64,000 bases of DNA from Patescibacteria group bacterium (GTDB lineage: Bacteria > Patescibacteriota > Patescibacteriia > UBA9934). The stretch covers positions 14,839-78,838 of the forward strand of contig JBAZWW010000004.1 of assembly GCA_041660165.1 (NCBI GenBank). Reading direction: 5' to 3'. Made by a program: the position numbers and the translations under genes. A model generated the notes under the pieces. That model saw only the letters and a list, made by a program, of their open reading frames with translations. It searched no databases and was not told where the DNA came from. Shown here piece by piece: positions 13,648 through 61,221 of the stretch (position 1 is the first letter of the stretch; every line of letters starts with the position of its first letter).

Positions 13648-14853
13648 TTATTTCTTTGAGGCAAGTAGTCTTTCAAGCGCCACAATGAATGCCCCGCGCC
13701 GAAAATCCGTCCCATATTTTTCCTTGGCCTCCCAAACGGCAAGAGCAGATTTCTCCATGTAGTCTTTTAGCATGGCGTCTACTTTTTCCGCCGTCCACTT
13801 CTCGTCCCTCATGTTCTGCTCCCACTCAAAATAACTGACCGTCACCCCGCCCGAGTTCGCAAGAATATCCGGGATCACCACAATCCCCTTCCCAAGAAGG
13901 ATATCATCTGCTTCAACAGTTGTCGGGCCATTGGCCAGCTCAAAGACGACTTTCGCTTTAATCCGCGCCGCGTTTTCACTGGTAATTTGATTTTCAAGGG
14001 CTGCCGGCACCAGCACTCCACATTCGAGCTCGAGCAACTCGGCGTTCGTAATAGTCTGCGCTCCAGGAAAACCAGACAGCGAACCCATGGACTCTTTATA
14101 GTCCTTCACGGCATTGATATCGAGTCCTGCTTCAGAGTAAATCCCGCTCTTAGAATCCGACACCGCAACTATTTTTACCTCATGCCTGGCACAAATGTCT
14201 GCAAACGTTGCCCCCGCATTTCCAAAGCCCTGAATCGCTACAGTAAACGTCTCCGGATCAAGCAACAGTTTCTCACGCAGGGCAGACAACACATACCAGC
14301 CTCCCATGGCCGTAGCGGTATCACGGCCAAGCGATCCGCCATGCTCAATACTCTTGCCCGTTACCACCGCCAGGTGCCCGAACTCTTCTGCAATGACGTC
14401 CATCTCAGCACTGGTGGTATTCACATCCGGCGCCGGCACATCGCGCTCAGGACCGAGCACGTCGCGAAAGGCACGGGCATACGCACGCGCGACTTCAAGC
14501 TTCTCAGTACTCGACAATTTCTTTGGATCAACAGTTACTCCCCCCTTTCCTCCGCCCATGGGAATATTTGCCACGGCAGTTTTAAACGTCATGAGCGCGG
14601 CGAGCGTTCTCACTTCGTCCTCATCCACGTTCGGGTGAAACCGAATTCCCCCTTTGTACGGCCCTCGCCAATTATTATGCTGAATGCGAAAAGCTGGCAA
14701 TTGAACGACAGATGCGTCATCCTTTTTTACGGACAGCGCCCTCTTTTCAAGATGTTGCGGGGCAACCAAACCGGAGACAATGTCTTTTGAAAGGCCCGCA
14801 GCGACACTGGCCCGTTCAAGCTGAATAAGGAAATTCTGATAGGAGTTTGGCAT
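13648..14853 (-). CDS. Glu/Leu/Phe/Val dehydrogenase family enzyme (glutamate dehydrogenase-like)
   Basis: GGGKGG glycine-rich catalytic motif (…ANIPMGGGKGGVTVDPK…) and a Rossmann NAD(P)-binding region (GFGNAG). Confidence 0.88.
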   Translation of the reverse strand: MPNSYQNFLIQLERASVAAGLSKDIVSGLVAPQHLEKRALSVKKDDASVVQLPAFRIQHNNWRGPYKGGIRFHPNVDEDEVRTLAALMTFKTAVANIPMGGGKGGVTVDPKKLSSTEKLEVARAYARAFRDVLGPERDVPAPDVNTTSAEMDVIAEEFGHLAVVTGKSIEHGGSLGRDTATAMGGWYVLSALREKLLLDPETFTVAIQGFGNAGATFADICARHEVKIVAVSDSKSGIYSEAGLDINAVKDYKESMGSLSGFPGAQTITNAELLELECGVLVPAALENQITSENAARIKAKVVFELANGPTTVEADDILLGKGIVVIPDILANSGGVTVSYFEWEQNMRDEKWTAEKVDAMLKDYMEKSALAVWEAKEKYGTDFRRGAFIVALERLLASKK

Positions 14854-40802: not shown

Positions 40803-41495
40803 CTAGGCGAAGGATCCGCCTTTCCCGGCAGCAATGGGCCGTATTGGCAATTGAAACTTCCTCAAATCACTCCCAACCAATACTCGTTGCACATCTGTTC
40901 GGCTAATCAATGACTGGGTTGGCCGTACGTCGTTACCGCTCCCGGGAATGCCTGGAATTGAGAACCCGACGTACTCGATCCTTTTCTTCAACCGAAATCG
41001 TACCCAATCAACCATCGGTACAAGGTCTGTGTCCGAACTCACTAGAATAGCCGTATCGTATTTATTATCGACTGCGCCAGCCACTAAATCAACTGCAATC
41101 TTAACATCGATTCCTTTCTCACGGAACGTATGCAAAGTAATCTCATTGATACCTTTACTCAAAATCTGTTGATGATTCTCTACCCGAGAGTCAATCAACA
41201 CCTTTTCCGTCCGCTCCCGAAGCTTACTTGTTTTGATCTGCCAAGCTGTCTGTTTCAAGCGGTTGAATAACTGCACCTGTTTAGCCATGGCTCGCCTACT
41301 TCGTTCGTCACCTTCCCGTTCTCGCACCGTTCCAATGTAGTATCTCTTCCCCTGCTCAGTAACCACCCTACTATCTGCGAGGAAATGAGCGAAGGCGTCA
41401 AAATCAAACCCCGCCGCCTGAATAGCCAATGGTTTGTGAGCGAGATGGTAAAAATTACCGCCATCAATAAAAATCTGTACTCGCTCCGCGTTCAT
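40803..41495 (-). CDS. NYN (LabA-like) ribonuclease-domain protein
   Basis: …VQIFIDGGNFYH…SSDTDLVPMV… NYN signature. Start at the internal Met (MNAERVQIF…). A 38-bp repeat copy (41528-41565) lies just upstream. Confidence 0.7.
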   Translation of the reverse strand: MNAERVQIFIDGGNFYHLAHKPLAIQAAGFDFDAFAHFLADSRVVTEQGKRYYIGTVREREGDERSRRAMAKQVQLFNRLKQTAWQIKTSKLRERTEKVLIDSRVENHQQILSKGINEITLHTFREKGIDVKIAVDLVAGAVDNKYDTAILVSSDTDLVPMVDWVRFRLKKRIEYVGFSIPGIPGSGNDVRPTQSLISRTDVQRVLVGSDLRKFQLPIRPIAAGKGGSFA

Positions 41496-41527
41496 AATGA
41501 GCAAAAAGTACCATAAAAATAAAGTCC

Positions 41528-41565
41528 TGCACACTCCCCGTGAGGGCAGGCGCAGGAGACTTTAT
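41528..41565. repeat. 38-bp repeat copy A flanking the DGR cassette
   Basis: cctgcacactccccgtgagggcaggcgcaggagactt; about 90% identical to 44338-44373 in the same orientation. Confidence 0.6.
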
Positions 41566-41606: not shown

Positions 41607-42599
41607 TCAACAAGCTAAATTATGAACCGCCTCGGCCAAACCAAACGTATTGCCATGTCCAAGAAGACCCAGATATGAGGCAACTACGCCTTCTTCCGGC
41701 TCAGCTCCGAGCCTCCTCATCATTCTGCGTTTTGTCGAACCCCTTAAGACCCGATGATCCGAAAATTGTACCCACCCTAAGAAATCCACCCCCGAAGCCA
41801 TTGTTCGGAGCTCGATCTTTTGTGGGTGAAGTGTTAACTTCAGTTGGTCGAACAAAAACTGATGAACAAGTGGGAGAACAGATTCGAGATACCCTCGATG
41901 ACGCGACAAAAATACAAAGTCATCCGCGTATCTCACATAATGTCTGATATGCAACTGATGCTTCACGTATTGGTCGAGTTCATTCATGTATACGTTGGCG
42001 AGTATCTGACTGGTCAAATTTCCTAGTGGCAATCCCACTCCTGGCACTCCCGACGGGAAGCTCTCGATAATCTGTTGAATACACCACATGATGCGCCAAT
42101 CGGCTATTCGCCGATCCAATATGAGAAGAAGTGTACGTTGGTCTATAGACGCAAAAAACTTTCTCACATCACACTTCAACACCCAAACGGTTTTTCGATG
42201 ATTCATCGATACTTCTTGTGCCATCCGAGTGAATCGATTATTCGCTCGATGAGTGCCTTTGGCGATCCTGCATGAAAAAGAATCAGCAATAAACGTCCGG
42301 TCAAAAAATGGATACAACTTTCGATACAATGCCCGATGGAAAATACGATCTCGAACAGACGCTTTATGAATCTGCCTTTTCTTTGGATCGTTAATAACAA
42401 AAGCTCTATATGGCTCATGACGATATGACATGTCCACAAGTGAGGCGTGCAAAGCCAGCAGATTGCTCATAAGGTTCCGGGCAAATTCTTGGACGTCCGG
42501 TTTAGAGCGCTTCCCGGGCAAAAATTCTCTCCATGCCACGAGCAAATTCTCGACGGAAATTATGTCTTCGTATTTTTCTTCAAAAATAATTCTGCCCAT
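41607..42599 (-). CDS. diversity-generating retroelement reverse transcriptase
   Basis: 330 aa with RT motifs: YADDFVF (motif C) and, in motif-4 position, LPLGNLTSQ. That is the DGR-specific [ILV]GxxxSQ signature, which replaces the QGxxxSP of group II introns. A DSFSCRIAKGTH block typical of DGR RTs is also present. There is no maturase/endonuclease extension. A TR/VR pair is adjacent. Confidence 0.85.
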   Translation of the reverse strand: MGRIIFEEKYEDIISVENLLVAWREFLPGKRSKPDVQEFARNLMSNLLALHASLVDMSYRHEPYRAFVINDPKKRQIHKASVRDRIFHRALYRKLYPFFDRTFIADSFSCRIAKGTHRANNRFTRMAQEVSMNHRKTVWVLKCDVRKFFASIDQRTLLLILDRRIADWRIMWCIQQIIESFPSGVPGVGLPLGNLTSQILANVYMNELDQYVKHQLHIRHYVRYADDFVFLSRHRGYLESVLPLVHQFLFDQLKLTLHPQKIELRTMASGVDFLGWVQFSDHRVLRGSTKRRMMRRLGAEPEEGVVASYLGLLGHGNTFGLAEAVHNLAC

Positions 42600-43000
42600 A
42601 TGAGATCATTTAACGTCCCCCCCCCCCGAAACTGCTCCCACTACTTGAAGACTTAAAATCTGCATATCTTGTTTGGTTTTTATACTACCAGACCATCCCC
42701 AAAACACACAGGTACACTCTCGGCGGTCGTATCGATGATTTGCTGGTAGACATGATCGAAGCGACTGCCACAGCGGGCTTTCTAGCTAAAGCAGAGAAGC
42801 TTCCGTATGTCCGAGTCTCAATCCGAAAACTAGATACCATAAAAGTGCTTCTCATGGTGCTGTGGGAAACGAAATCACTTAACGACAAGCAATACATCAC
42901 CCTTTCAGAAAAGTTTGAAGCGATTGGCAAAATGCTCGGTGGCTGGCATGGACAGCTCACCAAACAAACAACCCCAGGAAATATCCCGGGGCAGAAATGA
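42600..43000 (+). pseudogene. avd: avd (DGR accessory variability determinant, four-helix-bundle family), interrupted by an 11-C homopolymer
   Basis: The frame ending at TGA 43000 encodes …IPKTHRYTLGGRIDDLLVDMIEATATAG…LSEKFEAIGKMLGGWHGQ. This resembles Avd/23S-rRNA-IVS four-helix-bundle proteins (…SIPRKHG…, …EVGRILGSW…). The only upstream ATG (42600) is out of frame by 1 nt across the C run at 42617-42627. 12 Cs would fuse MRSFNV-PPPP-KLLPLLEDLKSAYL… into a roughly 133-aa Avd. Confidence 0.6.
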
Positions 43001-43004
43001 AACC

Positions 43005-43135
43005 TCTGGCGGAGACCGCAGCCGGGTTGTTGCCGTTCCACTGGTTGCTGAGCCAGTTGTAGTTCACGTACCAGTTCTGGCCATTCCAGTTGAGGTAGTA
43101 GACGTACACCTTGTCGTTCACCGGGTTGCGGAATC
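43005..43135 (-). repeat. DGR template repeat (TR)
   Basis: 131-bp repeat matching 43482-43612. All 23 mismatches fall at plus-strand T, which is minus-strand A, in this copy. This copy is therefore the invariant template. Confidence 0.85.
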
Positions 43136-43372
43136 ACGTGAAGTGCCATCCATAACACCATCCTTTGACTACTCTGAGGATTGAATCGAATTCGTGATAA
43201 TAATCACCTAGCACTCCACGCCAAGTTTTTTCATGTCAAAATCCGGAAAAGCCACGCTATTCCAAGCCGTAACCAGAAATATTCTGGACAAATTCGAATC
43301 AGGTTTGGTAGCCAGAAGTCTTAACCGCCGGCATATTCACCTTACCCGGACAAAGTATAACTCCAAATTGAA

Positions 43373-43405
43373 GAGGAGCTCCACGCAACGTTGCGCAGAG
43401 CTCCT
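43373..43405. promoter_or_regulatory. near-perfect 33-nt palindrome (cruciform-capable hairpin) 3' of the VR
   Basis: gaggagctc-cacgcaacgttgcgcag-gagctcctc, lying about 60-90 nt downstream of the target-gene stop on the coding (minus) strand. Confidence 0.6.
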
Positions 43406-43463
43406 CACGCGAATCCGAAAGTGCAAAGGACTGAGGATCTAAGGGCTAACGTGCCTAAGGATC

Positions 43464-44144
43464 TCAGGTCACAGTGCTGGGACTTGCGGAGACCGCAGCC
43501 GGGTAGCTGCCGTCCCACCGGCCGCTGAGCCAGCCGTAGTACACGCACCAGTGCCGGCCACTCCAGTCGAGGTAGCAGACGCACACCCCGGCGCTCACCG
43601 GGCTGCGGAAGCCCTCGCCCCAGAAGAAGATGGCGCCCGCTGTCTTCCAGCCCTCCGGAATGAAGTCCAGATTCGCCTTGAGCGCATCCAGCTCATTCTT
43701 GGAGGAATGGCCGGGCACGGCCTTCAGCTTCTCGTCCCAGAGGACTTGGCCGTTGATGCCACCATCGGCCAACTGGGCAGGGTCCACGTGGAACGTCATC
43801 GGCACGCCGTTACGGAGCAGAATCCGGTCCTTACCCGTCCCCTGCCAAGTGAAGATCACCGTGCTGGGCTTGACCACGTTCCATGCCCGCTCGGCCGTAT
43901 CGAACGGAAGCTGGGAAGGGACGTCGTTGTAGACCTCGAGCGTGTGCTCGTCGATCCGCTTGAAGCGGAGCGGGGCCGGGGCGGGCTCGGGCGCGTTCGC
44001 CCCCTTGAAGGCGTCAACGCGACGCTTGAGCGCGTCCTTGTCCGCGAGACATTCCTCCGCCTCTTCCATGGACATGCCCGCTTGCGCGAACTTACCCACG
44101 AGAGCAAGGAGCTGGCCAGCCGGGAGCTTCAGAAGGTTCGTCAT
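43464..44144 (-). CDS. DGR target protein (small protein with C-terminal VR in a C-type-lectin-like segment)
   Basis: 226 aa from MTNLLKL… with AAGGATGGG as RBS. The C-terminal W/G/Y-rich segment coincides with the VR. No signal peptide is evident. Confidence 0.75.
   Translation of the reverse strand: MTNLLKLPAGQLLALVGKFAQAGMSMEEAEECLADKDALKRRVDAFKGANAPEPAPAPLRFKRIDEHTLEVYNDVPSQLPFDTAERAWNVVKPSTVIFTWQGTGKDRILLRNGVPMTFHVDPAQLADGGINGQVLWDEKLKAVPGHSSKNELDALKANLDFIPEGWKTAGAIFFWGEGFRSPVSAGVCVCYLDWSGRHWCVYYGWLSGRWDGSYPAAVSASPSTVT
43482..43612 (-). repeat. DGR variable repeat (VR) at the 3' end of the target gene
   Basis: Matches the TR with 23 substitutions, exclusively at TR adenines (minus-strand sense). 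It encodes the C-terminal 45 aa of the target protein (…FFWGEGFRSPVSAGVCVCYLDWSGRHWCVYYGWLSGRWDGSYPAAVSAS). Confidence 0.85.
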
Positions 44145-44337
44145 GTGACTACCCATCCTTTCATAATGCCGTCGGTACACCCTGTATGCGATCTATTCGC
44201 CTACAAGATTTCCCTGTGTTAAAAACGGCTGTTCTTGGCTAATGTTTGGCCAGAAACAGCTATTTTCAACCTAGTCATTATAACAAAAAAATGCACTTTT
44301 GTCAATGTTATAGGGCCATAATACAAAGAGCTCCTAC

Positions 44338-44373
44338 ACACTCCCCGTGTGGGCAGGCGCAGGGGACTTAAAT
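44338..44373. repeat. 38-bp repeat copy B flanking the DGR cassette
   Basis: cctacacactccccgtgtgggcaggcgcaggggactt. Confidence 0.6.
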
Positions 44374-53483: not shown

Positions 53484-53559
53484 TGGTGCACCGGGCGGGA
53501 CTCGAACCCGCGACCAATAGATTAAGAGTCTACTGCTCTACCAGCTGAGCTACCGATGC
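53484..53559 (-). tRNA. tRNA-Lys (anticodon CTT)
   Basis: The reverse complement folds as a cloverleaf: acceptor gcatcgg/ccggtgc, D-arm agctcagctggtagagc, anticodon loop cuCTTaa, T-arm ggttcgagtcc, and an encoded CCA. Confidence 0.8.
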
Positions 53560-53627
53560 ATGCTCGGCGGAAAGTATGCCAAATGCTTTGACGCTGGTCA
53601 AGATTTTTGCTAGTATTCAGGGGTTAT

Positions 53628-53704
53628 GCGGTGTTAGCTTAGCTGGATAGAGCATCTGCCTTCGAAGCAGAGGGTCGGGGGTTCGAATCCCTCACACCGC
53701 ACCA
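53628..53704 (+). tRNA. tRNA-Arg (anticodon TCG)
   Basis: Acceptor gcggtgt/acaccgc, D-arm tagcttagctggatagagc, anticodon stem tctgc/gcaga with loop cuTCGaa, T-arm ggttcgaatcc, and an encoded CCA. Confidence 0.8.
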
Positions 53705-60818: not shown

Positions 60819-61221
60819 ATAAATTATAACAGTCGGTGTGGATAAATATTGACCAAACTGCCAGTATTCTGGTATTTTAATGAAGGAATTGCCCCGTATC
60901 CAAACTGTGGCGTTTATCGCCGCTTTCCCGAAAGGGATAGGATGCGAGGTTGCGGAAATCAGAAAATATGCTATACTCTAGCTACATTCGGGATTTTCCC
61001 GCGGCCCCGTCCTCGCAAGAGGGCGGGGAACATGTTTTTAAAGGGAATAGAGCTTTCTAAAACCCTCCTTAACCTTTTGGAAATCGCTGTCATCAAGTGA
61101 CCCCATTTTTGAAGAAAGCCTCCTGTAATCAATGGTTCGTAACTGGTGGAGACAAACGTTCGTCATAATTCCCTTTGCTTTTGCATAGCCTCCATCTCTA
61201 AACACTTCCTCACGTCATGGC

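Follow-up and report, generated by a model that had tools for sequence, protein, structure and literature searches.

The locus considered here lies in a 64,000-nt stretch of DNA (hereafter the window; positions 14,839 to 78,838, forward strand, of contig JBAZWW010000004.1, assembly GCA_041660165.1) from a Patescibacteria group bacterium. It carries a diversity-generating retroelement (DGR) composed of a reverse transcriptase (RT), a template repeat (TR), a target gene bearing a variable repeat (VR) and, antisense to these, an avd gene. The question that it raises is how the cofactor Avd can be made at all, as the avd frame has no initiation codon and the sole upstream ATG is set out of frame by a run of 11 C residues. 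The restraint and timing of DGR mutagenesis in cells are poorly understood, and bacteria belonging to the Candidate Phyla Radiation (CPR) are among the taxa most enriched in DGRs. Taken as a whole, the explanation that we favour, a CPR DGR of the B3 type whose Avd depends on slippage at this repeat, appears likely. The components of the element, in window coordinates, are:

41607-42599, minus strand: DGR reverse transcriptase of 330 aa with the motifs LGNLTSQ and YADDF (open reading frame (ORF); PF00078, 70.8 bits)
42629-43000, plus strand: avd body, 123 codons and TGA, antisense to RT, TR and target; no in-frame ATG, GTG or TTG before 42740
43005-43135, minus strand: template repeat TR, with the core at 43009-43135 and a GC-rich, A-free 3′ end at 43009-43026, resembling by sequence the IMH* (initiation of mutagenic homing) element
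43464-44144, minus strand: target gene of 226 aa; helices at the N-terminus, then a beta domain, and the VR in an alpha/beta domain at the C-terminus
43482-43612, minus strand: variable repeat VR, target codons ~178-221, with a GC-rich, by sequence IMH-like end at 43486-43503

TR and VR were aligned without gaps at a fixed offset of 477 nt (43005-43135 versus 43482-43612), with positions 43009-43135 (127 bp) as the core, and the same pair was recovered independently by a repeat search of the window. Over 131 bp the two copies differ at 24 positions, 23 of which are plus-strand T residues of the 43005 copy and one a G (43008). Within the core, all 22 differences fall on a plus-strand T of the TR, that is, on an adenine of the minus (coding) strand, and 22 of the 34 core TR adenines are altered in the VR. 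Given that adenine makes up 34/127 of the core, arithmetic from the alignment puts the chance of a 22/22 score at about 3e-13. The TR-to-VR changes over the whole repeat comprise 17 A>G, the remainder being A>T or A>C. The adenine bias claimed in the original prediction was thus recovered when the repeats were realigned and the mismatches tabulated, and its statement that all core substitutions lie at T stands, whereas its count of 23 differences, all at T, is incompatible with the non-A mismatch that it placed at 43008 in the same interval.

That non-A difference (43008/43485) and one further A difference (43005/43482) sit at the 3′ edge, where the homology stops. The homology is sharply bounded on both sides: in the gene sense it sets in abruptly at TTCCGCA and closes with an 18-19-nt GC-rich, A-free stretch, CCCGGCTGCGGTCTCCGC, directly beyond which the copies diverge. 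This 19-nt end occurs only twice in 64 kb, in the TR and in the VR. The TR, located 406 nt upstream of the RT on the same strand, translates into Asn-rich (AAC) pseudo-codons with an in-frame stop just 5′ of the homology, while the VR forms codons ~178-221 of the 226-codon ORF 43464-44144, roughly the last 45 codons, as had been proposed. The adenine footprint makes past activity of the DGR certain.

The RT ORF contains RYADDFVF and LGNLTSQ, the latter conforming to the [ILV]GxxxSQ motif of DGR RTs; the motifs that the original prediction had read as YADDFVF and LGNLTSQ in a 330-aa ORF are therefore present. Its best match among solved structures is the Bordetella phage bRT (PDB 8ub7, E 1.7e-39 over residues 11-299), as against 8e-16 for a group II RT structure and 2e-15 for retron-type RTs, so that the protein is nearer to DGR RTs than to either of the other kinds. 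The antisense frame matches Avd models (PF22296 bAvd, 44.4 bits at a cut-off of 40, profile positions 15-104 of 107; NF033474 DivGenRetAVD, ‘DGR protein Avd’, 55 bits, under its cut-off of 80) and stops, as noted earlier, 4 nt before the TR boundary (TGA 42998-43000 versus 43005).

Relatives of the RT were drawn from genomes (metagenome-assembled genomes (MAGs) of Uhrbacteria and Magasanikbacteria), from metagenomes (80 loci, RT 54-63% identical) and from exact-protein look-ups. About 60 related loci share the layout, and avd lies directly upstream of the RT, on the opposite strand, in every one with enough upstream DNA. In 42 relatives the TR (95-146 nt) runs in the RT sense and adjoins the avd 3′ end, the VR lies 420-575 nt upstream of the TR and the mismatches are overwhelmingly at adenines. 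Architecture B3, TR-(avd)-RT, accounts for 90% of the published CPR DGR set (Wu et al. 2018, PMC5758913), and an avd on the strand opposite to the RT, formerly considered unusual, is therefore the CPR norm. Because the TR/VR mismatches are adenine-specific, the RT with its LGNLTSQ motif is closest to bRT, Avd is matched and the layout is shared across the clade, the central call of the original prediction (a DGR with RT, TR, VR-bearing target and antisense avd) is right, and the element is almost certainly a B3-type CPR DGR.

The description of this DGR as complete does not hold for avd. In the avd frame, an in-frame TAA (42611-42613) is followed by CGT CCC CCC CCC CCG and then by the conserved body, which starts from AAA at 42629. 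The first in-frame ATG, GTG or TTG is a TTG at 42740, well inside a conserved helix; it was rejected as a start, since its use would remove ~37 conserved N-terminal residues (Avd profile positions 15-50). What lies upstream is the following:

42600-42656, plus strand: leader ORF MRSFNVPPPRNCSHYLKT*, 19 codons including the stop, from the only ATG upstream of avd
42617-42627, plus strand: C11 homopolymer (G11 in the RT sense), leader codons 7-10, which sets the ATG two nt out of the avd frame

The leader ATG at 42600 and the RT ATG abut on opposite strands to give the palindrome CATATG, and the closest relatives have this leader too (MRSFNV, MKSFSV, MMPSFSV), again with a run after it. Either C12 or C9 at 42617 would join the leader ATG in frame to avd. 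The C11 run is the only homopolymer of at least 9 nt in the window, and it is identical in three more assemblies of this genome (L001 and L002 from Logan, L099 from ENA). An assembly or sequencing error behind the frameshift was rejected on the grounds that the four assemblies agree and that 47 of 55 unique relatives have a run at this position. As judged from its sequence, the element as assembled would be unable to make full-length Avd by ordinary translation. Gene callers give avd only as 82-aa fragments; automatic annotation thus truncates or misses the gene here, and for this reason surveys of DGR ‘completeness’ from gene calls will misjudge such genomes.

In the closest subclade (RT at least 76% identical) none of the six members has the leader ATG in frame with avd, four being off by one and two off by two. 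Their run states are:

window: C11, off by two
L089: C10, off by one
L100: C8, off by two
L102: C10, off by one
L007: C9, off by one
L103: interrupted (CCCCCCTCCC), off by one

Across this subclade, the ratio of nonsynonymous to synonymous substitution rates (dN/dS) of the avd body is 0.01-0.06, with dS of at least 1 (saturated); the values for the window's avd against relatives are 0.03-0.06. Conservation begins at the first codon past the run. As such constraint is retained though 0/6 members are in frame, we infer that avd is translated and needed, and that this does not occur via conventional initiation.

A survey of 55 unique related loci revealed that the run is a feature of the clade. 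A C run of C7-C14 is present at the avd 5′ end in 47 loci (including 17 with C9 and 20 with C10), two others (L049 and L059) carry (CT)8.5 and (CT)10.5 in place of the C run, with the leader ATG again out of the avd frame, two have only C6, and the remaining four are without a repeat, all of these having an ordinary in-frame avd start (ATG in three, GTG in one). Such runs are otherwise scarce, as 61 of the 63 G/C runs of at least 8 nt in 415 kb of related loci are the avd-start run. In nearly every locus a single upstream ATG is open into the run; it is in frame with avd in 15 loci, one nt out of frame in 27 and two nt in 5 (rough chi-square ~15.5, the loci being phylogenetically non-independent). 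Two pairs of loci from different metagenomes bear directly on the stability of the tract. L018 and L019 agree over 5,985 nt without a mismatch and are set apart by one 1-nt gap, one having C9 (in frame) and the other C10 (off), and L042 and L043 likewise differ only by run length. This run-length polymorphism is direct evidence for DNA-level phase variation among relatives. The exact-protein look-up of P0241 was blind to run-length variants, because the run is itself part of the RT ORF called at that locus.

Since (CT)n can replace the C run, the conserved property is, as far as these sequences indicate, a slippage-prone simple repeat rather than poly-proline or poly-G as such. No DGR or Avd with a slippage-prone repeat was found in the DGR literature searched, a search that did not extend to the primary CPR DGR paper (Paul et al. 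2017), and the repeat at the avd start is apparently undescribed so far. On balance, we lean slightly towards the view that the repeat gates or tunes Avd expression. The broader proposition, that in the main CPR DGR lineage Avd is expressed only through slippage at a conserved simple sequence repeat (SSR; C8-C14 or (CT)n) a few codons past the start, we consider evenly balanced. Under either, slippage by a polymerase, at the level of DNA or RNA, is favoured, because (CT)n substitutes for the C run and the direction of the shift is not conserved.

The competitor that survives best treats the repeat as a recoding site and not a DNA switch. An RNA polymerase stuttering on the C/G run or on (CT)n, or a ribosome stalled at Pro-Pro-Pro and slipping on CCC-C, would yield a fixed low fraction of in-frame Avd whatever the genomic run length, and the run would hold Avd at a low level instead of turning it on and off. 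tRNA-Pro is prone to +1 shifts at CCC-C. The strong purifying selection on avd in a subclade whose six members are all out of frame agrees with this possibility, as do the apparent freedom of the frames to drift (the 15, 27 and 5 loci given above), the excess of off-by-one loci, which fits a preferred one-nucleotide slip, and the run of L103, which is interrupted yet still off by one. A single programmed ribosomal frameshift is nevertheless disfavoured by the varying direction of the shift in the closest subclade, and the (CT)n tracts of L049 and L059 are explained neither by poly-Pro nor by tRNA-Pro slippage. Furthermore, length polymorphism is seen directly at the DNA level, and bacterial transcriptional slippage is documented mainly for A/T runs (PMC1088944). 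We regard recoding as possible but doubtful.

In another reading, the run would serve the RT, in whose sense it is a G-run, from within the RT 5′ leader or the divergent promoter (a spacer, a standby site or a structure), with Avd produced from a non-canonical start. Poly-G/C tracts in promoter spacers modulate expression in Neisseria. The run separates two divergent, abutting genes and, wherever the RT ATG is placeable, precedes it by 3-60 nt; (CT)n is (AG)n in the RT sense and likewise purine-rich. This spread of distances is, however, far too variable for a Shine-Dalgarno sequence or a fixed promoter spacer, and a purely RT-directed role does not account for protein-level conservation of avd from the first codon past the run, nor for the one upstream ATG open into it in nearly every locus. 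As regards the non-canonical start, the window's avd frame holds between stop and body only the five codons CGT CCC CCC CCC CCG, among which there is no near-cognate start. We consider this reading unlikely.

A decaying, inactive DGR, with a frameshifted avd pseudogene and fossil TR/VR differences, is very improbable. It would agree with the out-of-frame avd in all four assemblies of this genome and with the occurrence of the exact target protein, and therefore of the same VR, on long contigs from three sources; a further assembly, L099, matches the window exactly over the entire cassette. The sameness of the VR fits an OFF state as well. Pseudogenes are incompatible with dN/dS values of 0.01-0.06 in six out-of-frame relatives at saturated dS, and RT, TR, hairpins and target are all intact. 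In addition, the two Logan assemblies for this genome break off at the VR boundary, exactly at 43486, and five related contigs stop inside or at their VR, as would be expected if VR heterogeneity affected assembly; these contig ends are suggestive only, and a stop at exactly 43486 is unexplained by k-mer logic. The weakest reading, a chance repeat beside a group II intron or retron RT, has in its favour a score of 136 bits to the NCBIfam group II RT model, though far under the cut-off of 300, and is already refuted by the adenine-specific TR/VR mismatches (22/22), the best match to bRT, the presence of Avd, the same layout in ~60 loci and an Rfam scan that found no group II intron or retron RNA in the window.

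How the favoured system, a B3 DGR with slippage-dependent Avd, might operate can be sketched from the transcription signals of the cassette, read from scans and conservation:

44277-44305, minus strand: perfect sigma-70-like promoter TTGACA-17-(TG)TATAAT upstream of the target (12/12 consensus matches; putative function)
43373-43406, minus strand: hairpin of 15 bp, its loop 4 nt long and its tail T-rich, 58 nt past the target stop (z-score -3.5)
43197-43224, minus strand: promoter-like TTGGCG-16-TATTAT, ~60 nt upstream of the TR, candidate promoter of a TR RNA (consensus scan; putative function)
42961-42992, minus strand: hairpin GCCCCGGG-ATATTT-CCTGGGGT followed by UGUUUGUUUG, 13 nt past the TR 3′ end and inside the avd 3′ end (terminator scan)

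Hairpins of 11-19 bp followed by a T-run occur 45-95 nt past the VR in most of the 42 related loci, and on this basis the 15-bp hairpin at 43373-43406 is read as a probable terminator of the target gene. It may alternatively serve as a homing cruciform like that of phage BPP-1, although the distance of the clade hairpins from the VR and the T-runs after them are terminator-like. In the VR-TR spacer there is also a 69-aa basic ORF (43233-43442, plus strand), whose N-terminus resembles an ORF at the same place in L007; it is more likely conserved TR promoter/leader DNA than a gene. About 100 nt around the TR promoter-like site are highly similar in L007.

The hairpin past the TR would terminate the TR RNA intrinsically or form a structure at its 3′ end. 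Nearly all of the 42 relatives have a GC-rich hairpin and a U-run at the equivalent place after the TR, with unrelated stem sequences, and compensatory double changes affect all 6 consensus pairs. Two G.U pairs of the minus strand become A-C mismatches on the avd strand, according to the sequence, and the structure is for this reason suited to the TR-sense RNA. The TR RNA of the clade thus seems, from these signals, to be a short discrete transcript ending inside the antisense avd 3′ end. Many loci share a short motif, UUCAUUUC (42993-43008 on the minus strand of the window), in the interval separating the TR 3′ end from the terminator hairpin, where it runs antisense to the region of the avd stop. 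The motif persists even in L007, though read there in another avd frame, which suggests an RNA-level role, e.g. in priming.

In the proposed mechanism, the target gene and a short TR RNA (~43190 to 42961, comprising leader, TR, hairpin and U-run) would be separate minus-strand transcripts, while the RT would be made by read-through or from a further promoter. By homology with the Bordetella bRT-Avd system, RT and Avd would reverse-transcribe the TR RNA with misincorporation opposite adenines, and the cDNA would replace the VR via the GC-rich, A-free 3′ end common to TR and VR. The footprint of such a process is seen in the 22 of 22 core differences at template adenines, concentrated in AAC codons, in the C-terminus of a small protein. 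Full-length Avd, and hence mutagenesis, would require slippage at the repeat; the route that we favour is a reversible DNA-level change of length (phase variation), perhaps aided by RNA polymerase or ribosome slippage, and the element as assembled (C11) would then be OFF or of low activity.

If the lineage-wide proposition is true, the hypermutable tract would turn a machinery of targeted hypermutation ON and OFF, or set its dosage, in a heritable and reversible manner. The DGR would be silent in most cells, rare slipped variants would diversify the target, and the C11 allele of the window would be OFF and one insertion from ON. A conserved slippage-prone tract in an essential cofactor under strong purifying selection would in this way offer a concrete mechanism for stochastic control of hypermutation.

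The diversified protein itself has no Pfam, NCBIfam or PDB sequence match, and the annotation of an identical protein in a ‘Patescibacteria group bacterium’ MAG reads hypothetical. Only three close homologues were found among 5.8 billion proteins. A profile search detected ~990 remote relatives, mostly of 170-230 aa, whose common part is the C-terminal ~100 residues, and none of these has a Pfam family. Targets of CPR clade-2 DGRs are typically without transmembrane or other recognisable domains (Roux et al. 2021, PMC8144416); together with the size of the relatives, this means that a small target without a signal peptide, regarded earlier as unusual, is ordinary for the clade. The C-type-lectin-like fold proposed for its C-terminus is weakly indicated. 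As a DGR, the element is a routine representative of a CPR B3 clade that is already well catalogued, in which both of its supposedly odd features (the antisense avd and the small target) are standard.

In composition the target gene stands far apart, with a GC content of 65% and a GC content at third codon positions (GC3) of 0.85, compared with 0.45-0.60 in its neighbours and 0.45 in the RT, and it ranks highest among the 46 long ORFs of the window. The tendency is clade-wide: mean GC3 is 0.70 for targets versus 0.54 for RTs, and the target is the higher in 32 of 38 loci, including those of very AT-rich hosts. Adenine mutagenesis was rejected as the source, since the depletion on the coding strand affects T as much as A; targets may have been transferred, or selection or biased gene conversion may have acted on them. 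Homologous targets were also observed in other contexts. One (L004:2247-2942) lies downstream of an NYN gene and a gene for a 342-aa signal-peptide-like protein, on a contig that stops just past the VR, and another (L003:10001-10687), with no RT or avd within ~6-10 kb, is a remote or orphan target.

The order of the element in the window is target(VR)-TR-(avd, antisense)-RT, between fpg and infB. Its neighbours are the housekeeping genes infB, fpg, adk and truB, and the element is therefore chromosomal. In L089 (RT 85% identical) the cassette occupies the same position between fpg and infB. A gene encoding an NYN-domain protein (predicted RNase; 40803-41534, minus strand) is located directly downstream of the RT; it adjoins the target in L004 and is absent from the syntenic L089, and its association with the DGR is uncertain. 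The cassette (2.8 kb) is bracketed by a 38-nt direct repeat, the copies of which are 92% identical and the only two in 64 kb:

41525-41562, minus strand: 38-nt hairpin and U-run, copy 2, terminator-like, downstream of the RT (dG -27.9, z-score -4.3)
44332-44369, minus strand: 38-nt hairpin, copy 1, just past the upstream 189-aa gene (repeat search and folding)

In L004 (93% nucleotide identity), the 189-aa gene, one 38-nt copy and the NYN gene stand side by side without an intervening DGR, and this comparison would imply a cassette insertion or rearrangement in the window genome. It also showed that the RT-proximal copy carries both ancestral flanks, from which it follows that the upstream copy arrived with the cassette. 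For the same reason, and as both copies fold as terminator hairpins, an interpretation as attachment (att) sites or a target-site duplication was rejected, and the repeats are read as probable duplicated terminators.

Several further observations were made in passing. A 3.78-Mb contig of Methylocystis hirsuta carries an annotated RT (P0183) 63% identical to that of the window, which could represent either a culturable non-CPR host of this RT clade or contamination. Elsewhere in the window, an Rfam DUF3800-IX small RNA motif, unrelated to the DGR, lies at 60891-60954 on the plus strand (45.5 bits versus a gathering score of 36.8). Two divergent tRNA genes, tRNA-Lys(CTT) (minus strand) and tRNA-Arg(TCG) (plus strand), occupy 53484-53704.

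Among known systems, the element is most like the CPR DGRs (B3 of Wu et al., PMC5758913; clade 2 of Roux et al., PMC8144416), with which it shares (i) a Patescibacteria MAG host and a chromosomal site, (ii) the order target-TR-(avd)-RT with avd reversed, (iii) a small target without recognisable domains and (iv) an RT that is 54-85% identical to those of dozens of CPR loci with the same layout. There is no difference in layout between the two. The prototype, the DGR of Bordetella phage BPP-1 (mtd-avd-TR-brt), is phage-borne, whereas the window element is chromosomal and its avd is antisense, between TR and RT. BPP-1 has an avd-TR-spacer RNA, while the TR RNA of the window apparently has its own promoter and a terminator hairpin directly 3′ of the TR. 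Moreover, the strong post-VR hairpin of the window is ~75 nt from the VR and terminator-like, and the start of its avd is interrupted by the C11 run.

With programmed frameshifting and transcriptional slippage (insertion sequence (IS) elements, dnaX, prfB; PMC1088944, PMC3711429), the avd repeat has in common a conserved frame transition at a slippery homopolymer in a gene under purifying selection. Unlike in those systems, the direction of the shift varies, the tract is C/G or (CT)n and not A/T or a heptanucleotide, and no stimulatory structure was identified at the avd repeat. A close parallel to the repeat is provided by SSR contingency loci (poly-G/C tracts in 5′ coding regions of Neisseria, Haemophilus and Campylobacter, and the poly-C tract of mga in group A Streptococcus, PMC10330708). 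Here, too, a G/C run of 8-14 nt or a dinucleotide repeat lies just past the start, in-frame and out-of-frame alleles occur among relatives, and otherwise identical sequences differ by length only. The likeness has its bounds, as in-frame avd alleles are no commoner than chance, and the length polymorphism of this clade is known between contigs of relatives. The gene gated in this case, finally, would encode no surface antigen but the cofactor of a mutagenic reverse transcriptase.

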